The notes under the pieces were generated by a model that was given only the letters and a program-made list of their open reading frames with translations, ran no database searches and was not told the origin of the DNA. A stretch of 46,248 bases of DNA. It comes from a virus. The position numbers and the translations under genes are program-made. The stretch spans positions 1 through 46,248 of the IMG/VR virus record IMGVR_UViG_3300032163_000001; one strand, given 5' to 3'. Shown here piece by piece: positions 16,462-44,249 of this stretch (position 1 is the stretch's first letter; every line of letters begins with the position of its first letter).

Positions 16462-17913
16462 GTGATTAAATTTGAACAACTGGGACAAAAGTCGTGGAAG
16501 TTGTGTAATGATGATCAGTGTATAGAAACGCTTGAACTTTCTTCTTCCTCCATCACTAACAAGTTCTCTATTGTTACTTCATTTATTGAGAATGTTTCTA
16601 AAAGTGTTGGAGATGAATTTGACCAGTGGCTAGTTCAATTTTTGAATGTATATAAGATGGCGGATGAGAAGAGATTTTTAGTGGTAGAAGAAAATATACC
16701 TCAGATGAAAAAATTTGTTGACTCTTATATAGATTCTAAAAATGTAAATTTTAGCCAGTTTGTTGATATGAGTAAGGCGAAAAAAACTAGCATCTTGTTT
16801 TATCCAGAAGAAATAGAAAAGATTATTAGATCGTCAAGTTATCTAAAAGTATATTCGTTAGTTTCGAATTCTGAAGGACTTAAATTAGATAGTAGATTGC
16901 ATAAAAAAGTTTATAATAAGTTAGTTTCTGATCTTCTTGAAGCAGACACTGTTTTTAAAGTGTTTAACATTGTTAAAACTAAAACTTTTAGATACAATAT
17001 TTCTGATAAGTATATGTGGGATTATATTAAAATGATACAGTGTAAGTCAATAGACATATATGCTGTAGAGATTTTTAATTTTATAATGAGCAGTATCTTT
17101 ACTTTATGTGATGAAAATAGAAACCCAATTTCTTATTTTATTAGTGTAGTTGATGAATCTGTGAAATGGTTTTTGAGATCAGTATACAAAGGATCTATTA
17201 TTTATGATGATTCAGTGGCTACAGAAGATATTCAAGCGATTCATATAGATAATTTAAGAACGTATACATACAATGATACTATTGGAAGACTAGAAAAAAT
17301 CGCACATGGGAAAATTCATAATGATTTAGAGAGATCAGTTATCTCTACATTTTCTGAAGATAAAGTTGATAAAATCATTCTGGATTTTGAGAAGAGAGTT
17401 TCTAGTGTAGAACATATTTCTCCACTATGTGAATGTTTAACTTTTCCGATTTTATCAATTGTTGCGGGTGTGCCATACGAGCACTTTAAAACTCTAACAC
17501 CAGATCATTGTATTGTTCTTTCAGTTTATCTTCAGTCATTATTGAAGAAAGTTTTTAATGAAGAGTATGAAAGTTTGTTTGATATGTTGAGTTATTTTCC
17601 TGAGAAAGCGTCTGTTGTACATACGACATATAAAATGAAATTATCGAATTTGAAAGATCAATTTCTACCACAGATGAATACTTGTAAATTCTTGAAGTTT
17701 AATGATAAAGTTTATTTACATGAGATTCTATCTTATTTTGTTGGCAGGATTGCTAGAGTAGATTTTATAGATGCTGTTACAGGAAAAGGTTTGGGCGGAA
17801 TTCCTCTTAGTAAAATTGAATCTGATATGATTAAGTTTTACTCTTTGTTCTTCAGTGGAAAATTCGAGAAAGAATTCGAAGAAGTAAAAGTGCTTTTGAA
17901 TAGTGATTTTTGA
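16462..17913 (+). CDS. hypothetical protein immediately upstream of the RNAP genes
   Basis: 483-aa ORF with a GTG start and a perfect AAGGAGG ribosome-binding site. Its stop overlaps the beta-prime reading frame. Confidence 0.45.
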   Translation: MIKFEQLGQKSWKLCNDDQCIETLELSSSSITNKFSIVTSFIENVSKSVGDEFDQWLVQFLNVYKMADEKRFLVVEENIPQMKKFVDSYIDSKNVNFSQFVDMSKAKKTSILFYPEEIEKIIRSSSYLKVYSLVSNSEGLKLDSRLHKKVYNKLVSDLLEADTVFKVFNIVKTKTFRYNISDKYMWDYIKMIQCKSIDIYAVEIFNFIMSSIFTLCDENRNPISYFISVVDESVKWFLRSVYKGSIIYDDSVATEDIQAIHIDNLRTYTYNDTIGRLEKIAHGKIHNDLERSVISTFSEDKVDKIILDFEKRVSSVEHISPLCECLTFPILSIVAGVPYEHFKTLTPDHCIVLSVYLQSLLKKVFNEEYESLFDMLSYFPEKASVVHTTYKMKLSNLKDQFLPQMNTCKFLKFNDKVYLHEILSYFVGRIARVDFIDAVTGKGLGGIPLSKIESDMIKFYSLFFSGKFEKEFEEVKVLLNSDF

Positions 17914-17944
17914 GAACAAATATAAAACTACAAAAGGGATAATA

Positions 17945-20900
17945 ATGTTAAAATTCTTAGATGTAGAAAAATTCTCAAGAAATCTTTTAGCCGTAACTAA
18001 TACAGAAATGTTTACAAGAACTGGCGAGCCGCATACACAGGGACTATTCTCCGAAGCTATTTTTGGATCTATTGGAAGTTTAGATAGGAGACAAAGGTAT
18101 TCTTACATTGATTTAAATATAAAGATAATTCATCCAGAGGCCTATAGAATCCTGATACAATTAGATAGGAAAGTAGAGAAATTCTTTTCCACAGAAAGTT
18201 TGTTCTCTTCAGATAAATCAGGAAAGTTAATTGAGTCTGAAGATGGAATAACTGGCATCTCTGAATTTATTAAGATATTTCCAAAGATTTCTTTTAGAGG
18301 TGAGACTTCGGAAAGAGAGAGACTTATTAAAGTGCTTAAAGAGTCATATACCTCTAATACGTTGTTTGTTTCAAAACTCCCTGTGATACCTCCAGATCTT
18401 AGGCCAGCATATACTGACGCTAAAGGTACTAGAATAATTGATCCTTTGAACGATTTTTATATTAGAATTTTAAGAAGATCTTTTCAAGTTAGAAGTGCTG
18501 GACCAACTGGAATATTTTCTGATCTTATAAGATATGGTTTACAAAAGTCTATTAATGATTGTGATACTTTTGTTAGGACGAAAATTGGAAAGAAAGGTGG
18601 AGTAGTTAGAGATCAATTACTATCTAAAAGAGTAGATTTTTCTGGAAGAGCTGTTATTACACCAAATCCAAACTTAGCAGTTAATCAAATTGGAGTGCCA
18701 TTAAAATTAGCAGTTAGTTTATTTGAGCCATTTTTACTACACGTTTTGTTATATTCAAATAAAATAAATAAGGAAGAACTAGAAAAAGAAATAGAAAACT
18801 TTTTACATACGAGTTTATCAGTAGACTCTGTGAAAAATGTAATGAAGTCGATTAAAGCTGGTCATGAGATTCCATCTAACCTTTATGAAATCTTTTTTAA
18901 TGCTGCTGAAATGGCTATAGCTGGACGTGTTGTTCTAGCAAAAAGAGATCCAGATTTACATCCTGAGTCTATTAGATCATTCTACCCAGTTTTAACAAGA
19001 GGAAACACTTTAGAAATATGTACGTTACAAGTTGGTGGATTTAATGCAGATTTCGATGGTGATGCTATGGGAGTTTTTCATCCACTAACTAATGAAGCAC
19101 AAGGAGAAGCGAAAGAAAAGATGATGAGACCCCAAACTGGGGTAACTTATAATTCTATAGCTTTTGAACTATCGAGAGAAATGTGTGTAGGTTTGTATTT
19201 ACTAACTAAAAGTGTTCGACCCAAGAATTCTCCTATTCATGTTTCTGAAGAAGATCTAGAAAAAGCTACAGATCCTTATATAGCAGTAGTTTATAGAAAT
19301 AAGAATACTACAATGGGAAAAGCTATTGTAAATAGTTGTTTTCCAGAAGCATTTCCATTTATAGATACTTTACTAACTAGAAAAGTAGCTAATGAGTTAA
19401 TAAATTCAGTTCTAGAAAAACATGGAAATAAACAAGGAGAACAAACAGCATCAAAACTCTCTAAAGTAGGATTTAAATTTGCTACTATAATTTCTCCTAC
19501 GTTGAAATTGTCTGATCTAGAAGTTCCAGATGAGATATATAAATTAAAGGAAAAAATGAAAGGAGTTTCAATTGAACAGGCAAATGTGTTGTTAGAAAGA
19601 ATGAGAAAGATAATGGTAGTTTATTTAAAAGATACAGGATTATATAATTTAGTAGAATCTGGTTCTACTAGAGGTTGGGATCAACCAATGCAAATTCTTG
19701 TAGCAAAAGGAATTATTGCTGATCCAAAAGGTAACCTTTTAGAACCAGTGAAAAGTTCATTATCTGATGGACTTACAACTACAGAATTTTTTAGAGCGGC
19801 TGCTGGTTCTAGGAAAGGAATTATTGATAGGGTTATAAATACTTCAGATACAGGATACTTATCTAGAAAGTTAGCTTATTTTTTAAGTCCAGTAGAAATT
19901 GATCCTTTTGTAAAAGATTGTAGAACTAAAAAGACTTTGTCGTTAAAAATAGATGAAGATTTATCTAGAAGACTACATGGAAGATTTATTGAATATGGTG
20001 GAAAACTTGTAGAATTTGATCCAAATCTATTTAGGACTGGTTCGCAGATAGACTTAAGGACTCCAATATATTGTAAGAGTCCAAGAATTTGTCATATATG
20101 TTATGGGAAATTAGTAGAAAGGCATAAAACTCCTTATGTTGGAATACTAGCAGCACAAATTATTGGAGAAAGAGGAACTCAAATTATCATGAGATCTTTT
20201 CATCTAGGAGTTGCTAAAATAGTTGAGAGAAGTATACTTAAAGAAATTGCAGAAAATGAGCCAATGATATCTCTAGATAAACTATCGTCTTATTTAGTCC
20301 AAAGAGATAATAGATTAACAGCTTTAAAGAACTGTAAAGTGATAATTGATATGAATGATTATGATGTTGGTGATAGTATGGTGGTGGAAGAAGATTCTAT
20401 ACAAGTTAAAAGCTTACTAAGTCAAATTGAGTTTGATGATGTAATTTTTTATTTGATTTTAGATTTTCCATGTAACTTGTATGTAGAGAAGAAAGTTGAA
20501 GAAGGTAAAGAGAGAATTGAATTGTTTTATAAAGAGGGTTCTACAATACTAGACGTGCCAACAGAAGTTACAGAAATGAAACAACAAGTTAACTATGTGG
20601 AAAGACTTATTGGTGGAAAAGAAGTGTTTAAAGACGTTGAACATTTATATCGAAAACTATATAAAGTTTACGCGCCTCTGTCTCCAATGGATTCAGTACA
20701 TTTAGAAATTGTAATATCACAGTGTTTAAGATACAGATTAAATCCTGCTTTACCTGCACGATTAGGGAAGACGTGGGATCCAGTATTGATTAATATAAAG
20801 AAGACAATATTTTCTAGCGGATTCATGCAGGGTTTGGCTTTCGAGAACGTGAACGAAGCTATCAAGGTAGGGTTAATTTCTGAGGAAGAGATTCCACCAT

Positions 20901-20947
20901 CAATTATTGAGAAACTAATGACAACTCCGCTTGTGGGAGCTAAATAA
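17945..20947 (+). CDS. multisubunit RNA polymerase beta-prime-like subunit (unsplit)
   Basis: GLFSEAIFGS matches ERDGLFCARIFGP. VSKLPVIPPDLRP matches LPVLPPDLRP. RVDFSGRAVITP matches RVDYSGRSVI. The catalytic NADFDGDAM motif is present. AAAGSRKGIIDRVINTSDTGYLSRKL is bridge-helix-like. AAQIIGERGTQIIMRSFH is trigger-loop-like. The ATG at 17945 (AAGGG ribosome-binding site) is preferred over the GTG at 17903. Confidence 0.85.
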   Translation: MLKFLDVEKFSRNLLAVTNTEMFTRTGEPHTQGLFSEAIFGSIGSLDRRQRYSYIDLNIKIIHPEAYRILIQLDRKVEKFFSTESLFSSDKSGKLIESEDGITGISEFIKIFPKISFRGETSERERLIKVLKESYTSNTLFVSKLPVIPPDLRPAYTDAKGTRIIDPLNDFYIRILRRSFQVRSAGPTGIFSDLIRYGLQKSINDCDTFVRTKIGKKGGVVRDQLLSKRVDFSGRAVITPNPNLAVNQIGVPLKLAVSLFEPFLLHVLLYSNKINKEELEKEIENFLHTSLSVDSVKNVMKSIKAGHEIPSNLYEIFFNAAEMAIAGRVVLAKRDPDLHPESIRSFYPVLTRGNTLEICTLQVGGFNADFDGDAMGVFHPLTNEAQGEAKEKMMRPQTGVTYNSIAFELSREMCVGLYLLTKSVRPKNSPIHVSEEDLEKATDPYIAVVYRNKNTTMGKAIVNSCFPEAFPFIDTLLTRKVANELINSVLEKHGNKQGEQTASKLSKVGFKFATIISPTLKLSDLEVPDEIYKLKEKMKGVSIEQANVLLERMRKIMVVYLKDTGLYNLVESGSTRGWDQPMQILVAKGIIADPKGNLLEPVKSSLSDGLTTTEFFRAAAGSRKGIIDRVINTSDTGYLSRKLAYFLSPVEIDPFVKDCRTKKTLSLKIDEDLSRRLHGRFIEYGGKLVEFDPNLFRTGSQIDLRTPIYCKSPRICHICYGKLVERHKTPYVGILAAQIIGERGTQIIMRSFHLGVAKIVERSILKEIAENEPMISLDKLSSYLVQRDNRLTALKNCKVIIDMNDYDVGDSMVVEEDSIQVKSLLSQIEFDDVIFYLILDFPCNLYVEKKVEEGKERIELFYKEGSTILDVPTEVTEMKQQVNYVERLIGGKEVFKDVEHLYRKLYKVYAPLSPMDSVHLEIVISQCLRYRLNPALPARLGKTWDPVLINIKKTIFSSGFMQGLAFENVNEAIKVGLISEEEIPPSIIEKLMTTPLVGAK

Positions 20948-21552
20948 TGATTATCTATAAAGCTGAGAATAAAGTTAATGGTAAGGTTTATATTGGTCAA
21001 ACTATTAAGAACATTGATAAAAGAATTTCTGAACATTTAAAATCTGAATATAGTTGTGGTATTGTTTTTCGAAATGCTCTTAAAAAATATGGAATTCAGT
21101 CTTTTGAAATTTCTATTATAGATAAAGGAGAATCTAGAGAAGAACTTAATGAGAAAGAAAAATATTGGATTAAGTTTTATAATTGTAAAGTCCCAGATGG
21201 TTATAATTTGACCAATGGAGGAAATGGAATTATTGGATATATCTTTACTCCAGAGGTTAGAAAGAAAATTGGTGATTCTATTAGAGGAAAGAAAAATCCA
21301 ATTCATTCAGAATGGATGAAAAAGAATAATCCAAATAAGAAACTAGAAGTTAGAGAAAAAATGGGTAGTCCTGGAAAAAGTAATGGAAGATTTGGTAAGC
21401 ACTGGTCCGAAGAAGAAAGAAAGATGATTAGTGAAAAGACAAAACAAGGTATGAAAAATTCAAGAGCTGCGGAGAAAATAAGTAAAAAATGTAAAGGAAG
21501 AATTCCTTGGAATAAGAAACTAATAGAGGCTAACAATGGCAATAAGGTTTGA
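20947..21552 (+). CDS. GIY-YIG homing endonuclease (copy 1)
   Basis: IYKAENKVNGKVYIGQT (GIY...YIG), KYG, EKYWIKFYN...GYNLTNGG. It overlaps both the beta-prime stop (TAATG) and the beta start. Confidence 0.7.
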   Translation: MIIYKAENKVNGKVYIGQTIKNIDKRISEHLKSEYSCGIVFRNALKKYGIQSFEISIIDKGESREELNEKEKYWIKFYNCKVPDGYNLTNGGNGIIGYIFTPEVRKKIGDSIRGKKNPIHSEWMKKNNPNKKLEVREKMGSPGKSNGRFGKHWSEEERKMISEKTKQGMKNSRAAEKISKKCKGRIPWNKKLIEANNGNKV

Positions 21553-24500
21553 AAAATTTCGACTTAATACACAAACTACTGACTCATTACGTTTCGTCTT
21601 AACAGATCAGAATATAGATCGTCCATACGCACTCGTCTACTTCTCTGAAAACTCTACTTTTATTGAAGACTATCCAAAGCTAAATCTTAGACCAGTAGAT
21701 TTTAGAATTGTCCTTGTCCCCTGGTCTATTCTTCCGAAATCTTCATTAACTAAAGATATGAGAGATGAGTATAAGAAACTTGGTTTACTTGCATATTCTA
21801 GTCGATTAAAAAATATGCCAAAAAGAAGAAATATTATAATTGATATTTCTGAATATATCGCAGCGATTGATAAATATCTAAAACCCATTAATTATAGACT
21901 GCGGGCTGGAAGGTATATTATTAGTCTTTTAAAATCAGTAGCTTTTAACTGGTCTAAGGATTATGAACTAGTTTTTGTTTACTCTATAGATATCAACAAA
22001 CCTATCTTTAAAATTATTGATAGAAGAGTATTTCCGATTGTTCGAAATGTAAGAGATGAAGAGTTTCCATTTAAACATTTTATTTTATCTACTATTGGTG
22101 CATCAAGTGTAAGATATCGTCTTTTGATGAAAAATGGAAGTTTCAATTACGCATTTTTGTGGCAGTATATAAAAGCTATTACACAATCTCATAGACCTGA
22201 GATAGAAGACCATGAAACAGTTGATATTCCGAAAGTTGATAAAGACGATGATCCAGAAATAGAGTCAGCTTCACAAGATATAGTAAAACATGTAGAACCA
22301 CATGTTGACAAAAAAAATGTTCAAAAATTCAAATCTTCTATTTCTTCTTTTTTAAAGAAAGATAATAAATCACTGGATAGAGTTATTTCTAAAGAAGTTA
22401 CTCCAGAAGAAAAACAAAAGATTGCTATCGCTTCAATCCTATATAAAAGTACAGGAGACTTACAGAGAGCTAAAAGTATAGCGAAATATATTCCAACAAA
22501 AGATGTTCTTAAAGCTTTGGTAAATGTTGATAAGAAGTATGCAGATGAACTTTTACCGCGAGTTCCAACTCTTTCTACATCAGAACACCCTATAGTTAAA
22601 CTTGTTGATATTCCAGAAATTGTAGAGAAAAAAGTTCCTACTCATATTATAAGTAAGAGACAAATAGATTTTCATGAAAACTTGAAGAAAGATGTTATTT
22701 CTTCGTTCTCTACTCTTGCTAAGAAGAAAGAAGGAGCAGTAAGACTTGAGAAACTTGAAATAGAAGATAAACCAGAGAAAAGGGGAGAAGTAGAGAAGAC
22801 TGATTTAGCAACTCTAAAAGTTGTTCTAAAAGACGAATTTGGGAATGTACATAAAATTGTAATTGACATTCCTAAGATAGATCAATTTGGAACGTTTAGA
22901 GTTAATGGAATAAGACAGTGCCTTTTAAACCAAATAATTTTTTGTCCAATTACGTTTCCAAAAAGGTATGATTCAAGGTTTGAAAGTTTTTACTCACAGT
23001 TTCATATTAAAAGTAAAAGAGTTAGAGAACCATACTATTTAGAAATCTATATGGGTGGAAATATTATTCCATTACTAATTTGTTTAGGTTATGGTTTTGG
23101 ATTTGATAACGTTCTAAAAGACTATGGAATTTCTTACAAAGTTGTAGATAAAAAATCTAAGGAAGAATTTTCTAGTAAAGTAAACGAAGACAAATATATT
23201 ATATTTGAAAAGGTTGATAATGAACTTAAACAAGAATTATGTACTTCTTTTATCAAGGCAAAAGTTTGGAAATATAAAATTGATAAAGAATTTCCTAGTA
23301 GAGAATACTTCAATGATTTAATCATTAAACTAACAGGAAGAATAAATTCTACATATATGATTCAAACTAACATAGAAAATATTATAGATCCAGTAACTAA
23401 ACAAGTTTTATTGAATAAAGGTCAACCAGTAACACTAGATCAAGTTATGAGATATATGGCTTCTAAAGTAGTTACTGGTTATATAGAAGATTTGAATGAC
23501 CTTTCTTCAAGAAGAATAAGAAGTTCTGAAGTTTTAGTTCATTTACTTCAGGAACAAATAGAAGCTGCTTATACTGTTTATAGATCTCAAATTCTTTCTG
23601 GAAATAAGAGCGCTAAACTAGAGATTTCTCCAATTGCACTTATGAAAAAATTTAAACAACAAGAAATAGTTGTTAATATGGAATACTCGAATCCACTAGA
23701 AGAACTAGCTACTTTAACTAAAATTAGTCCAATAGGAAAATCAATAAGCGGTATACCAGGGAGAGAATCTGTACAAGTTAGTGCTAGAGATATTAACGAT
23801 TCGTTTTTTGGTAACATAGATCCTTTAGATACACCTGAAGGGGAAATGGTTGGGATAGTGCAGTATCTTACAGTTGATGCTAATATAACTACAAGTAGAG
23901 GTTTGTTTTTTAAGAAGTCTCTGGATGATAAAGAAAAGTCTGGAATACTTTCAACATCTAGTTCAATGATTCCATTTATTGAAAGAAATGATGGTGCTAG
24001 AGTTTTGATGGCTGATGGTCACTCAAAACAAGCTTTGCCTTTAAAGAACCCGGAATCTCCAATAGTACAATCAGGTTATGAATCAGTTCTCACAAGGTCT
24101 TTATCTGACAACTTTTTAAAACCATCTCCGTGTGATGGAGTTGTCCAGAATATTACAAATGATAGTATTACGATAGAATGTAAAGATGGAGAAAAAGAAA
24201 GTGTTGATATTACACCAAGGTATCTAAGATCTGGAACTGGGAAAGATACTTTAAGTGTTTTTAATGTTAAAGTTGAAAAGAATCAGAAAGTTAGAAAAAA
24301 TCAAATACTTGCAGAAGGTGCGTGTATTTCTAATGGTATGATTTCTTTAGGAAGAACTTTGTGTGTTGCGATAATGAATTATAAAGGATATAATTTTGAA
24401 GATGGAATAGTAGTTAGTGAAAAACTGATAAGTGAAGAAAAATTGACATCTCTGCATGGAGAAGAGATTGATGTATGGGTTTCTGAGAAAGATAGAATTT

Positions 24501-25690
24501 TGTTTGTAAATTCAATTGGGACTGTTACTGAAAGAGGAGATGCTCTTTTAAGAAAGACTAGAGGTGAGATAGAAGAACTTCTTGGTTATACTGAAGAAGT
24601 TGAAGATGAATCAGTTTATATATCAGGCCGAGAATTTATGAAGAAAAGTCCAGGTGGTGTAATTGTAGATATTGAAGTATTTACGAATGTTAAATCAGAA
24701 AGATTTCCATTACTTAAAGATTTAATTGAAAGAACTTCTAGAAAATATAGAAAACCTTCTGCTGATCCATTTACAATTAAAGGAGAAAGGATAAATGGAG
24801 TTTTAGTTCGATTTAGAGTAGAGCAAGAACTAAAGATAACTCTAGGAGATAAGATTTGTAATAGATATGGAAATAAAGGAATTATTTCTTTAATAGAAAA
24901 ATCTGAGTATATGCCTAGAACTCCATGGGGAGAAGAGGTTGATATTATATTGAACCCTCTTGGTTTAGTAAGTAGGATGAATATTGGTCAGTTATTTGAA
25001 ATATATTGTGGACTTATCTCTAAAGCTTTAGCTATAAAAATTGTAGAAAGTAATGACCAAAATAGAGCTGTAGAAGGTTTAAGAAGAACTCTCCCACTTC
25101 TAGATGGAACAACTAAAAAAATATATAGTAGTAGTTTAATACAAAGTATATCTAGACTTACAAAAGCAGATTTTTCTAGACTTATAGATAGTATTACGAA
25201 AACGAAGTTCTTTCCAATTATAATACCTCCATTTCAATCACCTAAACTACAAGATATTAAGAAATGCTTAAAAGCTTTGGGTTTAGATGATGGATATCAT
25301 TTGACATTACCAGAGTTCGCGACTAAAACTTCTGAGAAAGTCCCAGTGGGGTATATGTATATTTACAAGTTAGAACATCTTGGAGAGTTAAAGATTTACG
25401 GTCGTTCTACAGGGATTGTTTCTGGCAAAGTTATGCAACCTGTTTCTGGAAGAAGGTTAGAAGGAGGACAAAAGATAGGAGAAAATGATACCTATTCATT
25501 ATTCTCATATAATTGTCCAATTTTGTTAAGTGAACTCTTTGGGCCATTGTCGGATGATCATACTACAAAGAATGAGATCATTTCTGATATAATTCATACT
25601 GGTGGAGCTAAGTATAGAGAAGCGAAAGTTTCGCCGGTTAAAGATCTCTTGAACGCCTATCTCGTATCTCTTATGTTAGCTCCGAAGTGA
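21536..25690 (+). CDS. multisubunit RNA polymerase beta-like subunit with a roughly 440-aa N-terminal extension
   Basis: QFGTFRVNGIRQ matches GTFVINGTERV. DPLDTPEGEMVG matches PIETPEGPNIG. RNDGARVLMADGHSKQA matches ANDANRALMGANMQRQA. GDKICNRYGNKGIISLI...VDIILNPLGLVSRMNIGQLFE matches GDKMAGRHGNKGVIS...VDIVLNPLGVPSRMNIGQ. Confidence 0.85.
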   Translation: MAIRFEKFRLNTQTTDSLRFVLTDQNIDRPYALVYFSENSTFIEDYPKLNLRPVDFRIVLVPWSILPKSSLTKDMRDEYKKLGLLAYSSRLKNMPKRRNIIIDISEYIAAIDKYLKPINYRLRAGRYIISLLKSVAFNWSKDYELVFVYSIDINKPIFKIIDRRVFPIVRNVRDEEFPFKHFILSTIGASSVRYRLLMKNGSFNYAFLWQYIKAITQSHRPEIEDHETVDIPKVDKDDDPEIESASQDIVKHVEPHVDKKNVQKFKSSISSFLKKDNKSLDRVISKEVTPEEKQKIAIASILYKSTGDLQRAKSIAKYIPTKDVLKALVNVDKKYADELLPRVPTLSTSEHPIVKLVDIPEIVEKKVPTHIISKRQIDFHENLKKDVISSFSTLAKKKEGAVRLEKLEIEDKPEKRGEVEKTDLATLKVVLKDEFGNVHKIVIDIPKIDQFGTFRVNGIRQCLLNQIIFCPITFPKRYDSRFESFYSQFHIKSKRVREPYYLEIYMGGNIIPLLICLGYGFGFDNVLKDYGISYKVVDKKSKEEFSSKVNEDKYIIFEKVDNELKQELCTSFIKAKVWKYKIDKEFPSREYFNDLIIKLTGRINSTYMIQTNIENIIDPVTKQVLLNKGQPVTLDQVMRYMASKVVTGYIEDLNDLSSRRIRSSEVLVHLLQEQIEAAYTVYRSQILSGNKSAKLEISPIALMKKFKQQEIVVNMEYSNPLEELATLTKISPIGKSISGIPGRESVQVSARDINDSFFGNIDPLDTPEGEMVGIVQYLTVDANITTSRGLFFKKSLDDKEKSGILSTSSSMIPFIERNDGARVLMADGHSKQALPLKNPESPIVQSGYESVLTRSLSDNFLKPSPCDGVVQNITNDSITIECKDGEKESVDITPRYLRSGTGKDTLSVFNVKVEKNQKVRKNQILAEGACISNGMISLGRTLCVAIMNYKGYNFEDGIVVSEKLISEEKLTSLHGEEIDVWVSEKDRILFVNSIGTVTERGDALLRKTRGEIEELLGYTEEVEDESVYISGREFMKKSPGGVIVDIEVFTNVKSERFPLLKDLIERTSRKYRKPSADPFTIKGERINGVLVRFRVEQELKITLGDKICNRYGNKGIISLIEKSEYMPRTPWGEEVDIILNPLGLVSRMNIGQLFEIYCGLISKALAIKIVESNDQNRAVEGLRRTLPLLDGTTKKIYSSSLIQSISRLTKADFSRLIDSITKTKFFPIIIPPFQSPKLQDIKKCLKALGLDDGYHLTLPEFATKTSEKVPVGYMYIYKLEHLGELKIYGRSTGIVSGKVMQPVSGRRLEGGQKIGENDTYSLFSYNCPILLSELFGPLSDDHTTKNEIISDIIHTGGAKYREAKVSPVKDLLNAYLVSLMLAPK

Positions 25691-32099: not shown

Positions 32100-33893
32100 A
32101 TGACTAAAAAAGATTATACTTTTAAAGATATTAAAGTTCTCGATGAAATTTCACATATTCGTTTAAATTGTGGAATGTATATAGGAGAAACATCTAATCC
32201 TGTACATTTAGTAGAAGAAGCTTTAGATAATAGTTTAGATGAATGTTTAGCTGGGTTCGCTAGTATTATTGCAATCAATATTGATACGAAGAATCATGTA
32301 TATAGTGTACTAGATAATGGAAGAGGTATTCCAATAGAAAATGATGTACCAGTAATAATATCTACTAAACTTTTCTCTGGAGCGAAATTTCAAGATAGTA
32401 AAACTGCATATGAAATTGCTTGTGGATTGCATGGTGTAGGATTAGTTGCAGTCAACGCTCTAAGTGATTTTCTTATCATTGAAATCTATAGAGATAAGAA
32501 ACATGCAGTTTATACATTCGATAAAGCAGTTCTCAAAAGTAAGAAGATTGAAGACCATAAAGGAAATATTCCATTTTCTACTAAACTACAATTTAAACCA
32601 GATAAGAAAATATTTGAGAATCTAATTCCAGATGTAGATAGAATTAGAAGAAGACTTTTAGCTGCATCTGTAGAACTAGAAAATTGTACCTTTGTTCTAA
32701 ATGTAGATGACAAGAAAGAAGTTATAAAACTAGATAAGAACAATTACTTTAAAAATGTTTGTTTAAATGAGTCGGATACTGAAATATCTCCTGTTATTAA
32801 TCTAGAGAGTGATAATGATGGAGAAGTTTTAAAAGTTATGTTTTGTTATTCTTTTTCAGGTTCTCCTACTCCAAGAACCTTTTCTTCTATTAACCTTTTA
32901 CCTGTAGAATCTGGGGGAACACATGTTAGCTATTTTATGGATATAGTTAAAGAGCTATTTTCTATCAGAAGTAAAAAAGCGAACGTGAGAATGCAACCAT
33001 CTGATTGCTTCATTGGTTTGAGGAGCTATATTAGTTTATCTCTAAAGAAACCAGAATTTTCTGGACAAACAAAAGATAAGTTAATTAATAGAAAATCTTA
33101 TCTTGATAAATTGTTCTCAAAGTTTAAGGTTTCTTTAGAAACTTATTTCTCTAAGAACCCGGAGCAACTTGAATTTCTTCTCTCTAAGTTTGCGGAATAC
33201 AGAAAGAAACTTGATTCTAAAAAATTAAAATTTAATGGATCAAGGTTCTCTACAAAGTTTACAAAACTTAGAGACTGTTCTTCAAGCAATGGAGAACTAT
33301 ATGTATGTGAAGGAGATTCAGCTGGAGGATCTATTTTAGCTTGCAGAAACCCCCAGGTTCATGCAGTACTTCCTTTAAAAGGGAAGATTCCATCTATTGT
33401 TAATGCGGTAGATATTTTAAAAAATGAAGAGATAGGAGAGTTAATTCAAGCACTAGGGGCGGGTGTTGGTTCTAACTTCGACATTACAAAATTAAAGTAT
33501 GAGAAGATTATTTGTGCAACAGATGCAGATGATGATGGAAAACATATCTTTTGTTTGTTAACTATTATTTTAGCAAATTTAGTACCAGATGTAATTAAAG
33601 ACGGACACTATTATTTAGCACAAACTCCTTTGTATGCAATCAATAAAGGAAAAACATTCCTTCCATTATGGAATGAAGATTCTTTGAAGAAAGCTAAAGA
33701 GAAACAAGAACCAATTACAAGATTTAAAGGTTTAGGTGAACTTAGTCCATGGCAACTTAAGATTAGTCTTTTGGATGAAAAGACAAGACATTTTACAAAA
33801 GTTGTATTTACAAAAGATCTCTCAAAATTAATGAAATTATTTTCTGATGTTCAAACTAAAAGATTATTATTAGAAGGAAAATTTACTATGTGA
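32100..33893 (+). CDS. type II DNA topoisomerase ATPase/Toprim subunit (GyrB or T4 gp39/gp60-like)
   Basis: GHKL motifs EEALDNSLDE and LDNGRGIP. Toprim motifs CEGDSAGGS and PLKGKIPS. KGLGE near the C-terminus. Confidence 0.8.
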   Translation: MTKKDYTFKDIKVLDEISHIRLNCGMYIGETSNPVHLVEEALDNSLDECLAGFASIIAINIDTKNHVYSVLDNGRGIPIENDVPVIISTKLFSGAKFQDSKTAYEIACGLHGVGLVAVNALSDFLIIEIYRDKKHAVYTFDKAVLKSKKIEDHKGNIPFSTKLQFKPDKKIFENLIPDVDRIRRRLLAASVELENCTFVLNVDDKKEVIKLDKNNYFKNVCLNESDTEISPVINLESDNDGEVLKVMFCYSFSGSPTPRTFSSINLLPVESGGTHVSYFMDIVKELFSIRSKKANVRMQPSDCFIGLRSYISLSLKKPEFSGQTKDKLINRKSYLDKLFSKFKVSLETYFSKNPEQLEFLLSKFAEYRKKLDSKKLKFNGSRFSTKFTKLRDCSSSNGELYVCEGDSAGGSILACRNPQVHAVLPLKGKIPSIVNAVDILKNEEIGELIQALGAGVGSNFDITKLKYEKIICATDADDDGKHIFCLLTIILANLVPDVIKDGHYYLAQTPLYAINKGKTFLPLWNEDSLKKAKEKQEPITRFKGLGELSPWQLKISLLDEKTRHFTKVVFTKDLSKLMKLFSDVQTKRLLLEGKFTM

Positions 33894-34632: not shown

Positions 34633-34854
34633 TATCCAAAACCACAAAAGAAACAAGAAAAAGATTTTAACGAACTTGAAGAGCTTGTTGATGATTATAT
34701 GAATGAAATAGAAAAATTAGAACAATTTTCTGGTGATGAAACACGTTATTTTGTAACTGAAAAGTTAGAACATTACATTTTTGAAGCAGCTCTTTACGCA
34801 TTTTATGGAAAAGATGTTTGGAAGTATACTAGCGAAAGGTTAAAAATAAGATGA
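34621..34854 (+). CDS. hypothetical small protein
   Basis: 77 aa; the start codon is ambiguous. Confidence 0.35.
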   Translation: MSYNYPKPQKKQEKDFNELEELVDDYMNEIEKLEQFSGDETRYFVTEKLEHYIFEAALYAFYGKDVWKYTSERLKIR

Positions 34855-35258
34855 AAATTGCTATTGTAGGAGCAGATGGAAAGAAATGGGGAAGTCTTGG
34901 AAAAGTTAGTAAATCTAACTTTCTTATAATTGTTGCTAAACAACTAATTGAGAAAATCTTGAAAGATAATCCTGGTTGCACTTTGGTTTCAGGGGCTTGT
35001 CCAACAGGGGGAGTTGATATCTGGGCGGAAGAAGTAGCAGATAAACTTGGAGTTCCCAAAGAAATCTATCCTCCTCGTATAAACAAATGGGAAGGTTATA
35101 AAGAAAGAGATATCAAAATAGCAAAGGCATGTGATAAACTTGCGTGTATTGAACCCTATAGAAGAAATCATTCTGGCGGAATGTGGACCATGAATTATGC
35201 GAGTAAATTAGGGAAACCAGTCAAGTTATTTGTGATTAAAGAAATGTTAGATAATTAG
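34851..35258 (+). CDS. DprA/Smf-like (SLOG-type Rossmann) protein
   Basis: IAIVGADG...LVSGACPTGGVDIWAEEVADKLG resembles the DprA core (SGlArGIDaaAHrgAL). Confidence 0.35.
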   Translation: MKIAIVGADGKKWGSLGKVSKSNFLIIVAKQLIEKILKDNPGCTLVSGACPTGGVDIWAEEVADKLGVPKEIYPPRINKWEGYKERDIKIAKACDKLACIEPYRRNHSGGMWTMNYASKLGKPVKLFVIKEMLDN

Positions 35259-35271
35259 TGTAGATAAAATT

Positions 35272-35531
35272 CTTAAGTAGATCTAGTTAAGGAGGTAGGC
35301 CTAACAGCAGTCATCCTTTAAAGAGTGACGATAGGTAGTGAAGGGGAGGCACACTTAAACCAATGATCCTGACGAAAAAGAAAACTTGCAACGGGGATTG
35401 AGCAAGTGGATGCCTACGGTATAGCGGCAAAGTTCAGTACGTTCAGATTTGGTCGTCCTCATCCAGGTTTGAACGTGAGTTAGCTGGATGCTCCCGTCTT
35501 AGTCTTTGGCGTAGCAGCACACTTTTCTAGA
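35272..35531 (+). other. GC-rich noncoding island (about 230 nt) closed by a perfect 15-bp inverted repeat; candidate structured RNA or MITE-like element
   Basis: CTTAAGTAGATCTAG at 35272-35286 and its reverse complement at 35517-35531. The interior is visibly GC-richer than the flanks and has no ORF. It contains the internal hairpin CATCCAG...CTGGATG. Confidence 0.35.
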
Positions 35532-35567
35532 TCTACTTAAGTTAAATAAAAAGGAAAGGAGAAAAAC

Positions 35568-36578
35568 ATGATTCAAAATTACATTAATCATATTGTATTT
35601 GTAGTAGATAGAAGTGGTTCAATGCAACAATTAACACAAGATGTTGTAAGAGTATTTGATAGCCAAATTAAATATTTATCTCAACGTTCTCAAGAATTGA
35701 ATCAAGAGACTAGAGTATCTGTTTATTTATTCTCATATTGGAATAGAATAGAATGTCTTGTTTATGATATGGATGTTATGCGTCTTCCAAGTTTAAAAGG
35801 ATATTATGATCCTGATGGACAAACAGCTCTTATTGATGCTACATTAAAAGCTATTAGTGATTTGGGAAAGACTCCAGAACTTTATGGTGATCATGCTTTC
35901 TTAATTTATACTCTTACTGATGGACAAGAAAATAATAGTAGGAATCAATCTCATGTATTATTAACTGCAATAGAAGCACTGCCAGAAAATTGGACTTTAG
36001 CGGTTTTAGTTCCAGATCAACGGGGAGTATTCGAATCTAAGAAGTTTGGTTTTCCAGTCGAAAATATCTCTATATGGGATCCAAGTTCAGTAAAAGGATT
36101 TGAAGAAGCTGGTAGTGTTATTCGCCAAGCAACTGATAACTTCATGAAGGGGAGAGCATCAGGAATTCGGGGAACTAGAAATTTATTTAGACCTGATATA
36201 ACAGCTACTGCCTCGCAAGTAAAGAAGAGTCTTGAAGAACTTAAACTAAATGAATATATTATTTTTAGAGTCAAAAAAGATTCTCCAATAAGAGAATTTG
36301 TGGAATCAGTTATGCGAAAGTATGTGAAAGGTTCAGCCTATTATCAATTAGTAGAGAGGAAGAAACCACATAAAATCCAAAATTATAAGCAAGTTTGCAT
36401 TAGAGATAATAATTCTGGAAAAGTATATACAGGGGATAATGCTAGACTTATATTAGGTTTACCAGATTATCAAGTAGAAGTTAAACCTGGAAACTTTAAG
36501 AATTTTGATGTGTTCGTTCAAAGTACATCTGTAAATCGAAAGTTAACTAAAGGAACAGATTTAATCGTTCTTACATAA
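35568..36578 (+). CDS. von Willebrand factor A domain protein
   Basis: VFVVDRSGSMQQ (MIDAS DxSGS). TALIDAT. YTLTDGQENNS (TDG motif). Confidence 0.6.
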   Translation: MIQNYINHIVFVVDRSGSMQQLTQDVVRVFDSQIKYLSQRSQELNQETRVSVYLFSYWNRIECLVYDMDVMRLPSLKGYYDPDGQTALIDATLKAISDLGKTPELYGDHAFLIYTLTDGQENNSRNQSHVLLTAIEALPENWTLAVLVPDQRGVFESKKFGFPVENISIWDPSSVKGFEEAGSVIRQATDNFMKGRASGIRGTRNLFRPDITATASQVKKSLEELKLNEYIIFRVKKDSPIREFVESVMRKYVKGSAYYQLVERKKPHKIQNYKQVCIRDNNSGKVYTGDNARLILGLPDYQVEVKPGNFKNFDVFVQSTSVNRKLTKGTDLIVLT

Positions 36579-39566: not shown

Positions 39567-40649
39567 TTGCCAAAGAGATTAGTTAATAAAAAATTTCTGC
39601 AGGAACAAGCTATTAAATTATATACGGAAGAATTTCTTAGTTTAAATCAAGTAGCAGAAGTTCTTAATATTAGTCAAAGACAAGTTTTTAGATTCGTAAA
39701 AGGTAAAACTAGAAGTATAGTAGAATCTAGAAGGATAACTTCAAAAGTCAAAAATTTAGATTTCTTTGATAATATAGATTCAGAAGAAAAAGCATATTTT
39801 CTTGGACTTATATATTCAGATGGTTGCTTACATGAAAATCGTGGAGTTACTATATCATTAGAAATAACGGATAAACATTTAATAGAGAAATTTTCTTCAA
39901 TTTTTAACTCAAATATCACATATGAAACAACAAGTAATGGATCAATCCATTGTCAAACTAGTATTTGGTCAGTCTACATAACTAGATCATTAGAAAAAGT
40001 AGGAATATATCCAAGGAAAAGTTCTTTGAAGGATGTAGATATTCTTAATAATTTACCAAAACATTTACTTAGACATTTTATTAGAGGTTTTTTAGATGGA
40101 GATGGATGTATATATGAAAGTAGAAAAGATACATATGGAGTTACTTTGAGTGGAAATAACGAAAATTTTATATTTAAATTAGCTGAAGAGATTAAAGATA
40201 ACTGTGATTTTAACTACCTTAGAATTTCAAAGAATTGTAAATGCAATTGTAGATCAATTACAATTCATGGAAATCTTAAATCGAAAGTTTTTCTTGACTG
40301 GTTATACAAAGATTCTAGTATATTCATGTACAGAAAAAAAGCTATTTATGAAAAAATAGTAGTCCAAGTAAATAACAAGAAATTTACTGGAGTTAGGTTC
40401 GATAAAAGAAATGGAAAATTTCGAGCTGTATTAGGTTACGAAGGGAAAAGAACATATTCAAAGTTTTGTATAAGTGAACAACAAGCTGCTGAACTCTATG
40501 ATAAAATGGCTACTAAACAAAATTATGAAAGATATCAACTAAATTTTCCAGAAAGATATGAGGAGTACTTAAAGAAAATAATACCAATATACTCCAAGGA
40601 GAAGGGAGGTCCCCATGCCACTCTGGAAATGCACCAAGTGTCACCATGA
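39567..40649 (+). CDS. LAGLIDADG homing endonuclease with an N-terminal HTH and a C-terminal AP2-like DNA-binding domain
   Basis: Two LAGLIDADG-type motifs, YFLGLIYSDGCL and FIRGFLDGDGCI. N-terminal LNQVAEVLNISQRQVFRFV is HTH-like. C-terminal GVRFDKRNGKFRAVLGYEGKRTYSKFCISEQQAAELYDK follows the AP2 pattern. TTG start with an AAGGAGG ribosome-binding site. Confidence 0.65.
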   Translation: MPKRLVNKKFLQEQAIKLYTEEFLSLNQVAEVLNISQRQVFRFVKGKTRSIVESRRITSKVKNLDFFDNIDSEEKAYFLGLIYSDGCLHENRGVTISLEITDKHLIEKFSSIFNSNITYETTSNGSIHCQTSIWSVYITRSLEKVGIYPRKSSLKDVDILNNLPKHLLRHFIRGFLDGDGCIYESRKDTYGVTLSGNNENFIFKLAEEIKDNCDFNYLRISKNCKCNCRSITIHGNLKSKVFLDWLYKDSSIFMYRKKAIYEKIVVQVNNKKFTGVRFDKRNGKFRAVLGYEGKRTYSKFCISEQQAAELYDKMATKQNYERYQLNFPERYEEYLKKIIPIYSKEKGGPHATLEMHQVSP

Positions 40650-42947: not shown

Positions 42948-44249
42948 ATGGATAATCTTATTCCAGAATTATATAGGGATTATGGACTCTACGTCAATTA
43001 TTTTAGAGCTTTTCCACTGAGTGTTGATGGATTAAAACCAGTAGAAAGACGAATCTTGCTATCTACATATGAAATAGCAAAAGATAAATTTGTTAAATCT
43101 GCTAGAATTGATGGACATTGTTTAGGTCATTATCATCCACATTCTTCTTCTTATTCAACAATAGTTCAGTTAGTGAATCAAGGTTTTTTAGATGGGCAAG
43201 GTAACTGGGGAATGGATTCTGGAGTTGAACCTAATCCAGCTGCTGCAATGAGATATACTGAATGTCGACTTTCTAAGTTCATTAATGATTTAACATTTAA
43301 ATTGATAGATTATGTTCCAGTTCAACCTAGTGAATTAGACGACGAACCAGTATATCTTCCGACTATGTTCCCACTGTGTTTATTAGGTAACAGTTATAGT
43401 GTAGGAATAGGCTTTGGTTTTAAAACTTTAATTCCATGTTATAAAGTTGAAGACTTAAAAGAAAGACTTCTATTCTTATTAGGAAAAACAAAGAAGAAAC
43501 CTACTATAAAACCAATATCAGATTGTGGGATTTTATCTGGAGAACAAGATCTAGAAACTTTATTAACAACTGGAAAAGCAACAATTCAAACTAGAGGAGT
43601 GATTGAAATTGACTATAGACAATGTAAAGTTACTGTTAAGTCTTGGCCTTTTGTTAGACGATTTGAATCTATCCTTTCTAAATTTTCTAAAGAACTTGAA
43701 AACCAAGATGTTGGATTTACTGATCTTTCTACGGATAAAACTAAGATTGTATTTGAAGTTTTAAAACAAAGAAGCAGAGATGAAATATTCAAATCTTTTG
43801 TTAAGAAGTTACAGAGCGCACTAACAGGGGCAGTGTCGTTCGAAATAACTGTTGTGGATGTAAGTAGACAAAGAATTAGAACTATGTCTGTAGATCAAAT
43901 GCTATTAGAAACGTATAAAATGTTTTTAAAAACAAATGAAGTAATGCTGAAATCAACTATTTCAAAGATAGATGAACATATCACAGAAAATAAAATACTA
44001 CAAAAGGTGATTCCATCATTGAAAAAACATATGGGAAGAGAAAGTAACATTAGTAATACAATTGAAGAAATTAGTAAAGAAACACATGTAGCTGGAGAAA
44101 TAATTGCTAAGTTATTTAACAAGTATAGGATAAACAAGTTACTAACAGTGTCTTTGGATACAGCAGATTTAGAGAGGGATAAGTTAGTATATGTTAAGAA
44201 CTTAGGAAATATTGATGAGTTTGTTGTAAATCAATACGAGAAGTTGTAG
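42948..44249 (+). CDS. type II DNA topoisomerase breakage-reunion subunit (GyrA N-terminal domain or T4 gp52-like)
   Basis: RAFPLSVDGLKPVERRIL matches the GyrA motif RALPDVRDGLKPVHRRVL. AAMRYTECRL matches AAMRYTEARL, which holds the catalytic Tyr. Confidence 0.75.
   Translation: MDNLIPELYRDYGLYVNYFRAFPLSVDGLKPVERRILLSTYEIAKDKFVKSARIDGHCLGHYHPHSSSYSTIVQLVNQGFLDGQGNWGMDSGVEPNPAAAMRYTECRLSKFINDLTFKLIDYVPVQPSELDDEPVYLPTMFPLCLLGNSYSVGIGFGFKTLIPCYKVEDLKERLLFLLGKTKKKPTIKPISDCGILSGEQDLETLLTTGKATIQTRGVIEIDYRQCKVTVKSWPFVRRFESILSKFSKELENQDVGFTDLSTDKTKIVFEVLKQRSRDEIFKSFVKKLQSALTGAVSFEITVVDVSRQRIRTMSVDQMLLETYKMFLKTNEVMLKSTISKIDEHITENKILQKVIPSLKKHMGRESNISNTIEEISKETHVAGEIIAKLFNKYRINKLLTVSLDTADLERDKLVYVKNLGNIDEFVVNQYEKL

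Follow-up and report, generated by a model that had tools for sequence, protein, structure and literature searches.

What kind of element occupies a GC-rich noncoding island that is closed by a perfect inverted repeat in the genome of an uncultured phage? This question is raised by positions 35259-35567 of the virus record IMGVR_UViG_3300032163_000001, analysed here as a stretch of 46,248 nt (hereafter referred to as the window). A preliminary description of this DNA had offered three options for the island: a noncoding RNA whose structure is closed by a long helix, a mobile element resembling a miniature inverted-repeat transposable element (MITE), and a cis element such as an origin or packaging site. 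We conclude, with a probability of about 0.95, that positions 35272-35541 represent a structured RNA that is homologous to the GTPase-associated center (GAC) of 23S rRNA and belongs to a family of phage elements for which we introduce the name split-GAC RNA. The GAC comprises helices 42-44 of 23S rRNA (nucleotides 1051-1108 in E. coli, whose numbering is used for the core throughout) and is known as the uL11/thiostrepton domain; it binds the ribosomal protein uL11 and thiopeptides, and contacts EF-G, EF-Tu-tRNA and RelA-tRNA. The parts of the window RNA are as follows:

35272-35541, + strand: whole RNA element of 270 nt, the only locus in the window found by our covariance model R1
35272-35291, + strand: 5' strand of the closing helix, resembling helix 42, with 15 perfect bp, a U.U/U.U loop and 3 bp (AAG/CUU) abutting the core
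35292-35326, + strand: 5' module of the GAC core, equivalent to E. coli 23S rRNA 1056-1090, with helix 43, the 1067 loop and the junction; site of the local match to a large subunit (LSU) rRNA model
35327-35508, + strand: variable insert of 182 nt that splits helix 44 between 1090 and 1091
35509-35521, + strand: 3' module of the GAC core, equivalent to 1091-1103, with the helix 44 hairpin GCGUAGCAGCACA and the 1095 loop (A1095 = 35513)
35522-35541, + strand: 3' strand of the closing helix, paired with 35272-35291

As a description of the DNA, the earlier account of the island proved accurate. The interior of the inverted repeat (35287-35526, 240 nt) has a GC content of 47.1% compared to 31.8% for the window, which places it in the top 1.7% of 240-nt windows, and the + strand of 35259-35567 contains no open reading frame (ORF) of at least 30 aa, the only ORFs being two short ones on the - strand. 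The repeat consists of CTTAAGTAGATCTAG at 35272-35286 and its exact reverse complement at 35527-35541 (15 bp, perfect), and the pairing of the arms reaches inward to 20 nt with 90% complementarity (35272-35291 / 35522-35541), across the U.U/U.U internal loop. No other perfect non-overlapping 15-mer inverted repeat with arms no more than 500 nt apart exists in the 46-kb window; at least one such repeat was present in 19 of 300 mononucleotide shuffles. The duplex formed by the two strands has a predicted energy of -23.6 kcal/mol, and this closing helix is among the longest and the eighth most stable of the 91 homologues compared below. Internal hairpins, for example 35439-35452 paired with 35463-35476, were likewise found as described.

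The relationship to rRNA was evident from a comparison with other phages. In a blastn search of the element against 50,697 phage records, the sole region matched was a stretch of 37 nt (35291-35327), with counterparts in the Pseudomonas phages Astolliot and pf16, in both cases in an unannotated gap inside a tRNA gene cluster. The three loci share a 5' module, GGAGGUAGGCCUAACAGCAGUCAUCCUUUAAAGAGU, which corresponds to E. coli 23S rRNA 1055-1090 (helix 43, 1067 loop and junction), and a 3' module, UUUG-GCGUAGCAGCACAC, which corresponds to 1091-1104 (helix 44 hairpin with the 1095 loop). The modules lie 110-180 nt apart, and the sequence of the helix enclosing them is specific for each phage yet complementary. 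Scans with Rfam 15 (4227 families) gave 0 matches for the window at the gathering score, rRNA included, and ARAGORN detected neither tRNA nor tmRNA in the 46-kb window. Since both scans were empty, we ruled out tRNA, tmRNA, RNase P, 6S, SRP, group I/II introns, GOLLD, ROOL and HEARO; the Rfam check that had been proposed for group I intron, tmRNA, SRP, RNase P and 6S is thus negative in the window. A permissive Rfam scan yielded one informative weak match, between window 35287-35358 and positions 1178-1235 of the archaeal LSU rRNA model (E = 0.059), and E-value scans gave E = 2.8e-4 for the pf16 element and E = 2.4e-4 for the Astolliot element (bacterial LSU model 1081-1156). The GAC region of LSU rRNA was the sole Rfam similarity of all three elements. 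The idea that the inserts mimic other parts of rRNA such as the sarcin-ricin loop was dropped, as the scans of pf16 and Astolliot match the GAC region alone. At the gathering score, tRNAs were the only Rfam matches of the cultured-phage loci, and no copy of the element itself matched an Rfam family. Minimum free energy folding of the window element gave a z-score of only about -2 on either strand and did not recover the GAC, as expected for a domain that is driven by tertiary structure.

All elements that define the family are present at 35272-35541, namely the closing helix, 1056-1090, the stem-closed insert, the UUUG/A tail, 1091-1103 and the pair U1090-A1101. The helix 43 hairpin GGCUUAGAAGCAGCC at 35293-35317 carries the A1067 loop (A1067 = 35303) on a stem of A1057-U1081, N1058-N1080 and G1059-C1079, and is followed by the junction UUUAAAGAGU, in which U1082-A1086 corresponds to 35318/35322 and A1088 to 35324. 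The AGGAGG-like sequence reported next to the left repeat does exist (GGAGGU, 35291-35296); it is equivalent to 23S rRNA 1055-1060 at the base of helix 43 and not a ribosome-binding site. The window copy departs from the family at 1065 (C), 1068 (A), 1069 (C) and G1063.U1075. Two viral matches to this G.U variant were found, and in L228, the one that was read, the insert is unrelated; a 29-mer query retrieved 0 close relatives of the variant from metagenome contigs. The insert is closed by a 3-bp stem (5'-GAC-3' at 35327-35329 with 5'-GUC-3' at 35502-35504). A hairpin of 14 bp lies within it at 35439-35476, and its last four nucleotides (35505-35508) are the UUUG tail that is specific to the family. 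The insert sequence is unique among the 91 homologues.

Covariation across the family backs the assignment as a structured RNA. Family figures rest on 92 distinct elements from phage contigs and cultured phages, and alignment figures on 91 distinct members, whose core alignment of 96 columns covers the two modules, 12 nt from either flank, and the two ends of the insert (its first 10 nt and its last 14 nt). When the GAC secondary structure was imposed on this alignment, 85.9% of the cells were paired compared to 65.4% in shuffles, with 0 of 500 shuffles reaching the observed value, and the covariation score was 0.545 compared to 0.162 after shuffling. Sliding the partners by 1-3 columns lowered covariation to 0.105-0.192 and pairing to 35-54%, and RNAalifold recovered the same helices with no structure supplied. 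In the closing helix, compensatory changes were found at 12 of 12 pairs tested, and the mean duplex energy of the flanks was -13.3 kcal/mol for cognate and -5.1 kcal/mol for non-cognate combinations. Pair 1058-1080 occurs in all four Watson-Crick types (UA 44, GC 29, AU 12, CG 4) and pair 1082-1086 as UA (53) or CG (34); the helix 43 stem positions are paired in 100% of the homologues, and the first three pairs of the insert stem in 100, 99 and 92%, with 3-6 pair types. These results support the structured noncoding RNA with a long closing helix and go beyond the simple regulatory palindrome pair that had been kept as a fallback; the resemblance to the GAC had escaped the preliminary description.

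Invariant nucleotides in the alignment are U1060, A1070, C1072, A1073, A1077, A1088, G1091-C1100, C1092-G1099 and A1095, and G1071 and A1067 are conserved in 99% and 80% of the members, respectively; we take all of these to be tertiary or ligand contacts of the GAC, as in the 1999 uL11-RNA crystal structures. Positions 1057, 1059, 1060 and 1062-1064, which were unconstrained by the search, are 100% conserved in the 91 members. The 5' strand of helix 44 is interrupted between 1090 and 1091 by the insert of 27-445 nt plus UUUG, while G1091-C1100, C1092-G1099 and A1095 (in a GUAAUA loop) do not vary. In the UUUG tail, which was fixed only by the 3'-module search pattern and is unconstrained in the matches to the 5'-module pattern, the three U are 93-99% conserved and the fourth position is G in 81% and A in 19%. 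In the family, U1090-A1101 replaces the A-U or U.U of rRNA, and positions 1096 and 1097 are relaxed. The insertion point at 1090/1091, the UUUG/A tail, U1090-A1101 and the relaxed 1096 and 1097 are derived features that are absent from rRNA.

A scan of IMG/VR with the 3'-module pattern returned 71 loci, about 28 of which have a 5' module upstream, and the 5'-module pattern returned at least 120 loci. About 110 of 129 5'-module sites have a helix-44-like module 27-445 nt downstream, and none has the gap of 0 that is found in true 23S rRNA. The dereplicated set from the IMG/VR matches listed comprises the 92 distinct elements, with inserts all of at least 27 nt (range 27-445 nt, median 158 nt). 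Using a 40-nt consensus query, we found the element in at least 20 cultured phages, in none of which it had been annotated. The carriers include Cronobacter phage GAP32, Pectobacterium phage CBB and Serratia phage BF, seven Erwinia phages (six pEa_SNUABM isolates and Kaldavass), Yersinia phages fHe-Yen9-03 and fHe-Yen9-04, Aeromonas phage 4_4572, Xanthomonas phages XacN1, XbC2 and XaC1, and Pseudomonas phages pf16, Astolliot, Milchi and UNO-G1W1. Overall, the hosts range from Gammaproteobacteria to Clostridia and Bacteroidota. Among 185,579 species-representative prokaryotic genomes, a family-specific 18-mer hit 44 sites, of which 15 were real, mostly on contigs of metagenome-assembled genomes or in a prophage; one real copy, in Flintibacter muris, is identical to an IMG/VR contig. 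The split-GAC family is thus essentially phage-borne.

Matches in short records and in Paenibacillus phage Pd_22F were set aside as genuine 23S sequence with gap 0; the true 23S stretch in the GenBank record of Pd_22F is the sole gap-0 match among the collected loci. In this record (L180, MZ092003.1), positions 2366-2437 contain an unbroken 23S GAC that adjoins a serine recombinase and has almost no annotated coding sequence around it; this stretch probably represents host rRNA DNA or a chimera formed in the assembly of the phage record. Model R1, which was built on the trimmed core, cannot span long inserts; it reports the two halves separately and closes the 5' half on a fortuitous nearby 'CAC + complement'. 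It found no second copy in the window. A match of R1 at 32421-32514 within a GyrB-like ORF (18.3 bits, E of about 0.02) is regarded as chance because the invariant nucleotides of the core are missing from its alignment.

Among the 91 homologues, the inserts form 62 sequence clusters that are unrelated to one another. Nineteen members form an insert subfamily (e.g. L002 1620-1650, L001 1606-1640, L181 and L038) with a conserved hairpin, CACCCC-N6-GGUAAGG, that precedes the insert-closing stem; covariation is seen at its third stem pair, the tetraloop is variable (GAGA, UAAC, GAAA), and the hairpin is absent from the window copy. Astolliot (L001) carries a second, divergent split-GAC copy at about 1160-1480, in tandem and directly upstream of the canonical one, ahead of a tRNA-Met gene. 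In this copy, U1072 and U1092-A1099 replace C1072 and C1092-G1099, and the position of 1095 is a C. The alternation between C1072 / C1092-G1099 and U1072 / U1092-A1099 was reportedly described by Conn, Gutell and Draper in 1998 as the classic base-triple covariation of the GAC domain. The divergent copy indicates that paralogues exist beyond the search patterns used here.

A side observation concerns the insert of the window copy, where GGCACACUUAA at 35346-35356 repeats the ending of the 3' module (GCACAC) and continues with the complement of the 5' UUAAG. This site was used by model R1 as well as by the Rfam LSU model, and pf16 has a similar 'CACC + complement' nearby. GGCACACUUAA could close a compact alternative GAC without helix 44; the site may be due to chance, a relic of a duplication, or part of an alternative conformer.

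With regard to genomic context, ARAGORN placed a tRNA gene within 100 nt of the element in 42 of 92 loci and within 1 kb in 62. All 62 tRNA-linked copies have the orientation of the tRNA, and the tRNAs lie as often upstream as downstream. Location in a tRNA array is thus typical for the family, and not universal. No protein family recurred beside the element, the largest cluster comprising five related loci. Longer closing helices, as a substitute substrate for RNase III, were considered for the copies that have no tRNA nearby, and this idea was abandoned, as the difference is not significant (p = 0.18). In the window, 35259-35567 is the entire intergenic gap between ORF 34851-35258, which is weakly SLOG/YspA-like, and ORF 35568-36578, which is vWA-like, and the genes around the island are all on the + strand. 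No sigma-70-like promoter or intrinsic terminator was found flanking the island, and since the element likewise lacks any site resembling a promoter or terminator, it probably shares a transcript with the + strand genes on either side. The 5-kb flank gave no blastn match among the phage records, which indicates that the phage of the window has no sequenced close relative.

Two explanations would deny the locus a function as an RNA. The inverted repeat could be a DNA-level element, either MITE-like with terminal inverted repeats or a protein-binding palindrome serving as origin or packaging site, as had been envisaged before, and a perfect 15-bp repeat around a compositionally distinct island is what such an element would look like. 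The rest of the window, however, holds no further copy of the arms above chance-level matches with 2-3 mismatches, transposase and target-site duplication are absent, and the arms of the homologues are unrelated in sequence and nevertheless complementary, which is the behaviour of an RNA helix and not of a transposase site. An origin or packaging site is also at odds with the strand bias of the tRNA-linked copies (62 of 62) and with the excess of G.U over A.C in the helices (53 compared to 27, p = 0.005), which fits selection on a + strand RNA. We therefore consider a DNA-level element hardly credible. A functionless relic, i.e. a decaying fragment of host 23S rRNA taken up by a phage, would account for the clear homology of the core to 23S rRNA, and true rRNA does occur in some phage records such as Pd_22F. 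Against this, more than 90 diverse copies share the insertion point, the UUUG tail, U1090-A1101 and a private closing helix with compensatory changes, and the copies of enterobacterial and Pseudomonas phages have GAGU at 1087-1090 and G-C at 1058-1080, where their hosts presumably have GAAA and U-A, respectively. Shared derived features together with differences from host rRNA argue for purifying selection instead of decay, and the shared derived features exclude recent independent captures, so that a relic is very improbable.

Two further explanations accept the RNA and assign it a different role. As a cis-acting leader, the window element would control translation or stability of the vWA-like gene 35568-36578 via uL11, in the manner of ribosomal protein leaders, and its position 26 nt 5' of the start codon, on the same strand and with neither promoter nor terminator in between, would suit this role. 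Yet the structure includes neither the start codon nor the Shine-Dalgarno sequence (about 35553-35560), family copies adjoin tRNA genes or unrelated genes with no conserved gene downstream, and the one viral vWA homologue found, with 59% identity to the downstream protein (L183), has no such element upstream, which implies that the element is not tied to that gene. A leader function is accordingly improbable, if somewhat less so than a relic. Alternatively, the GAC core could be a stable, uL11-coated platform that protects the RNA and defines its ends, with the insert as the functional part (aptamer, antisense RNA or lineage-specific decoy). The inserts are indeed the fast-evolving part, with lengths of 27-445 nt and little in common between their clusters; every insert leaves the core at the same point via a covarying stem, and the 19-member subfamily has conserved a hairpin within it. 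But some inserts measure just 27-45 nt, folding the window insert by itself gives a stability no greater than that of shuffles (z = -0.2), and the loops that contact factors are kept (A1095 invariant, A1067 at 80%), which would be needless for a mere platform. We judge this explanation unlikely, while giving it more weight than the preceding ones.

The most likely role of split-GAC RNA is that of a stable trans-acting noncoding RNA which serves as a decoy or sponge for ligands of the GAC, such as uL11, the stalk, translational GTPases or GAC-directed toxins; we assign this decoy and uL11-binding mechanism a probability of 0.5-0.6. The conserved surface is the one recognised by uL11 and factors, no phage gene travels with the element, and the hosts are diverse, which together suggest that the RNA targets either a universally conserved component of the host or a molecule directed at such a component; the lack of a conserved phage protein neighbour by itself suggests that the partner is host-encoded and universally conserved. 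In the proposed mechanism, the RNA would be cut from a polycistronic transcript, in most phages by the tRNA-processing enzymes that cut its neighbours, and in the window possibly by RNase III acting on the 20-bp stem. The freed RNA would fold into an off-ribosome GAC and capture the usual GAC binders, the likeliest being uL11, perhaps together with the uL10/bL12 stalk. Such capture may titrate uL11 or the stalk and depress RelA activation, it may sequester translational GTPases, or it may absorb toxins that modify or cut the GAC, for example Tre23-type ADP-ribosyltransferases or nucleases. The last possibility would parallel phage tRNAs, which are thought to counter anticodon nucleases. Isolated GAC (thiostrepton-domain) oligonucleotides reportedly bind EF-G (Munishkin and Wool 1997). 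In RelA complexes, A1067 contacts the elbow of the A/R-tRNA, and the thiostrepton loop is used as well (PMC5829649), and Tre23 ADP-ribosylates helix 44 at 1095-1098 (PMC8661411). The targeting of this part of the ribosome by phage proteins is documented, in that phage-encoded proteins with L7/L12 domains enter ribosomes (bioRxiv 10.1101/174177).

Several points weigh against the decoy mechanism. While fold, family, restriction to phages and link with tRNA arrays come from the data, the function is deduced entirely from mimicry. uL11 is abundant and mostly ribosome-bound, so a sponge would need tRNA-like expression, and the mechanism presumes that the uL11-bound fold tolerates an insert at 1090/1091. 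A simple decoy does not explain why the insert is hypervariable (62 clusters among 91). The window copy itself is atypical, as there is no tRNA gene in the 46 kb, a protein gene begins 26 nt downstream of it, and it deviates at 1068, 1069 and 1075. Finally, positions 1070-1103 were partly fixed by the search patterns; no such constraint applied to 1054-1069, the closing helix and the insert stem, and these positions give the same picture as the constrained ones.

On a more speculative level, phages of many lineages may code for a free-standing copy of the factor-binding ribosomal stalk base that, together with host uL11 and possibly uL10/bL12, assembles into an off-ribosome ribonucleoprotein intercepting molecules aimed at the GAC, a proposal that we regard as tentative and rather doubtful. 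Such a particle would be expressed with the phage tRNAs; its targets would be defence or competitor toxins acting on helices 43-44, RelA-dependent stringent signalling and translational GTPases, and the hypervariable insert would serve as a lineage-specific adaptor. If true, this would be the first case of a virus mimicking a domain of rRNA, and an RNA counterpart of the tRNA-based anti-defence strategy.

Compared to the 23S GAC, split-GAC RNA has nearly identical helix 43 and 44 hairpins and junction, the same covarying pairs (the helical pair 1058-1080 and the tertiary pair 1082-1086) and invariant tertiary-contact nucleotides, and one paralogue, in Astolliot, even carries the UUA base-triple variant. 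It differs in being a free-standing phage gene of about 130-550 nt, the window copy lying between two protein genes with no rRNA gene, and in its insert and UUUG within helix 44, the U-A pair at 1090-1101, the lineage-private closing helix and the relaxed 1096/1097. Ribosomal protein leaders (the rplJ L10 leader, RF00557, and those of L1, L20 and S15) are also extra-ribosomal RNAs that copy a protein-binding site of rRNA. They capture a ribosomal protein, and the L10 leader mimics a neighbouring part of the same stalk-base region. In contrast to split-GAC RNA, which is phage-encoded, located mostly in tRNA arrays and almost identical to the rRNA site, these leaders are cis-regulatory, host-encoded, situated in the 5' untranslated regions of ribosomal protein operons and only loosely rRNA-like. 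No Rfam leader matched in the window, where the gene downstream codes for a vWA-like phage protein with its Shine-Dalgarno sequence outside the structure. GOLLD and ROOL are large structured RNAs of unknown function that are often borne by phages or prophages and adjoin tRNA genes. Split-GAC RNA shares this genomic habit with them but is much smaller, has a ribosomal domain as its core and shows no sequence or structure match to them in the Rfam gathering scan. Decoy RNAs such as 6S, which mimics open promoter DNA, and the pseudo-ToxI of phage PhiTE (PMC3475682) are stable RNAs that titrate a protein by imitating its ligand, as we infer for split-GAC RNA, although the mimicked object and the partner differ.

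We found no earlier description of such an RNA in the open full-text literature, which leaves subscription-only articles outside the search, and none in Weinberg et al. 2017. As there is neither a model in Rfam 15 nor a description in this literature, we rate split-GAC RNA as a new kind of phage RNA and a large undescribed family. If this is correct, annotation has missed a widespread class of phage noncoding RNA, including in well-known jumbo and T4-like phages (GAP32, CBB, XacN1, Serratia BF, pf16, Astolliot). The finding would bear on why phage tRNA arrays carry extra stable RNAs, on whether phages manipulate uL11 and the stalk, the stringent response and factor recruitment by RNA besides proteins, and on whether defence and competition systems attacking the GAC are widespread enough to select decoys. 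The family also provides a naturally occurring set of GAC variants in which insertion at one site is tolerated, of use in RNA structural biology and for uL11- or thiostrepton-binding tags, and a family covariance model would clear hundreds of unexplained gaps of 150-500 nt in phage annotations.

The phage of the window is uncultured and of low GC content; it codes for RNA polymerase beta/beta'-like proteins, a split topoisomerase II, ribonucleotide reductase (RNR) and UvsX. Two adjacent ORFs at 17903-25690 (1014 and 1384 aa) match the Rpb1/beta' and Rpb2/beta domains of multisubunit RNA polymerases, so that, judged by these domains, the phage appears to code for its own, largely unsplit beta'/beta-like RNA polymerase. 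Scans for host sigma-70 promoters may therefore not be informative in this genome. An ORF with endonuclease/HNH similarity (phrog_4645, phrog_99, and a faint LAGLIDADG match) lies between the GyrB-like gene at 32100-33893 and a topoisomerase II large-subunit-like gene (window 39567-40649 and 42948-44249 for the endonuclease and topoisomerase II region), and has the appearance of a homing endonuclease that has inserted into the replication module. The only stretch of the window that is richer in GC than the island is found at its 5' end (positions 1-520, 55% GC), where tandem repeats code for collagen-like G-X-Y triplets in a gene that runs off the 5' end and probably encodes a tail-fibre-like protein.

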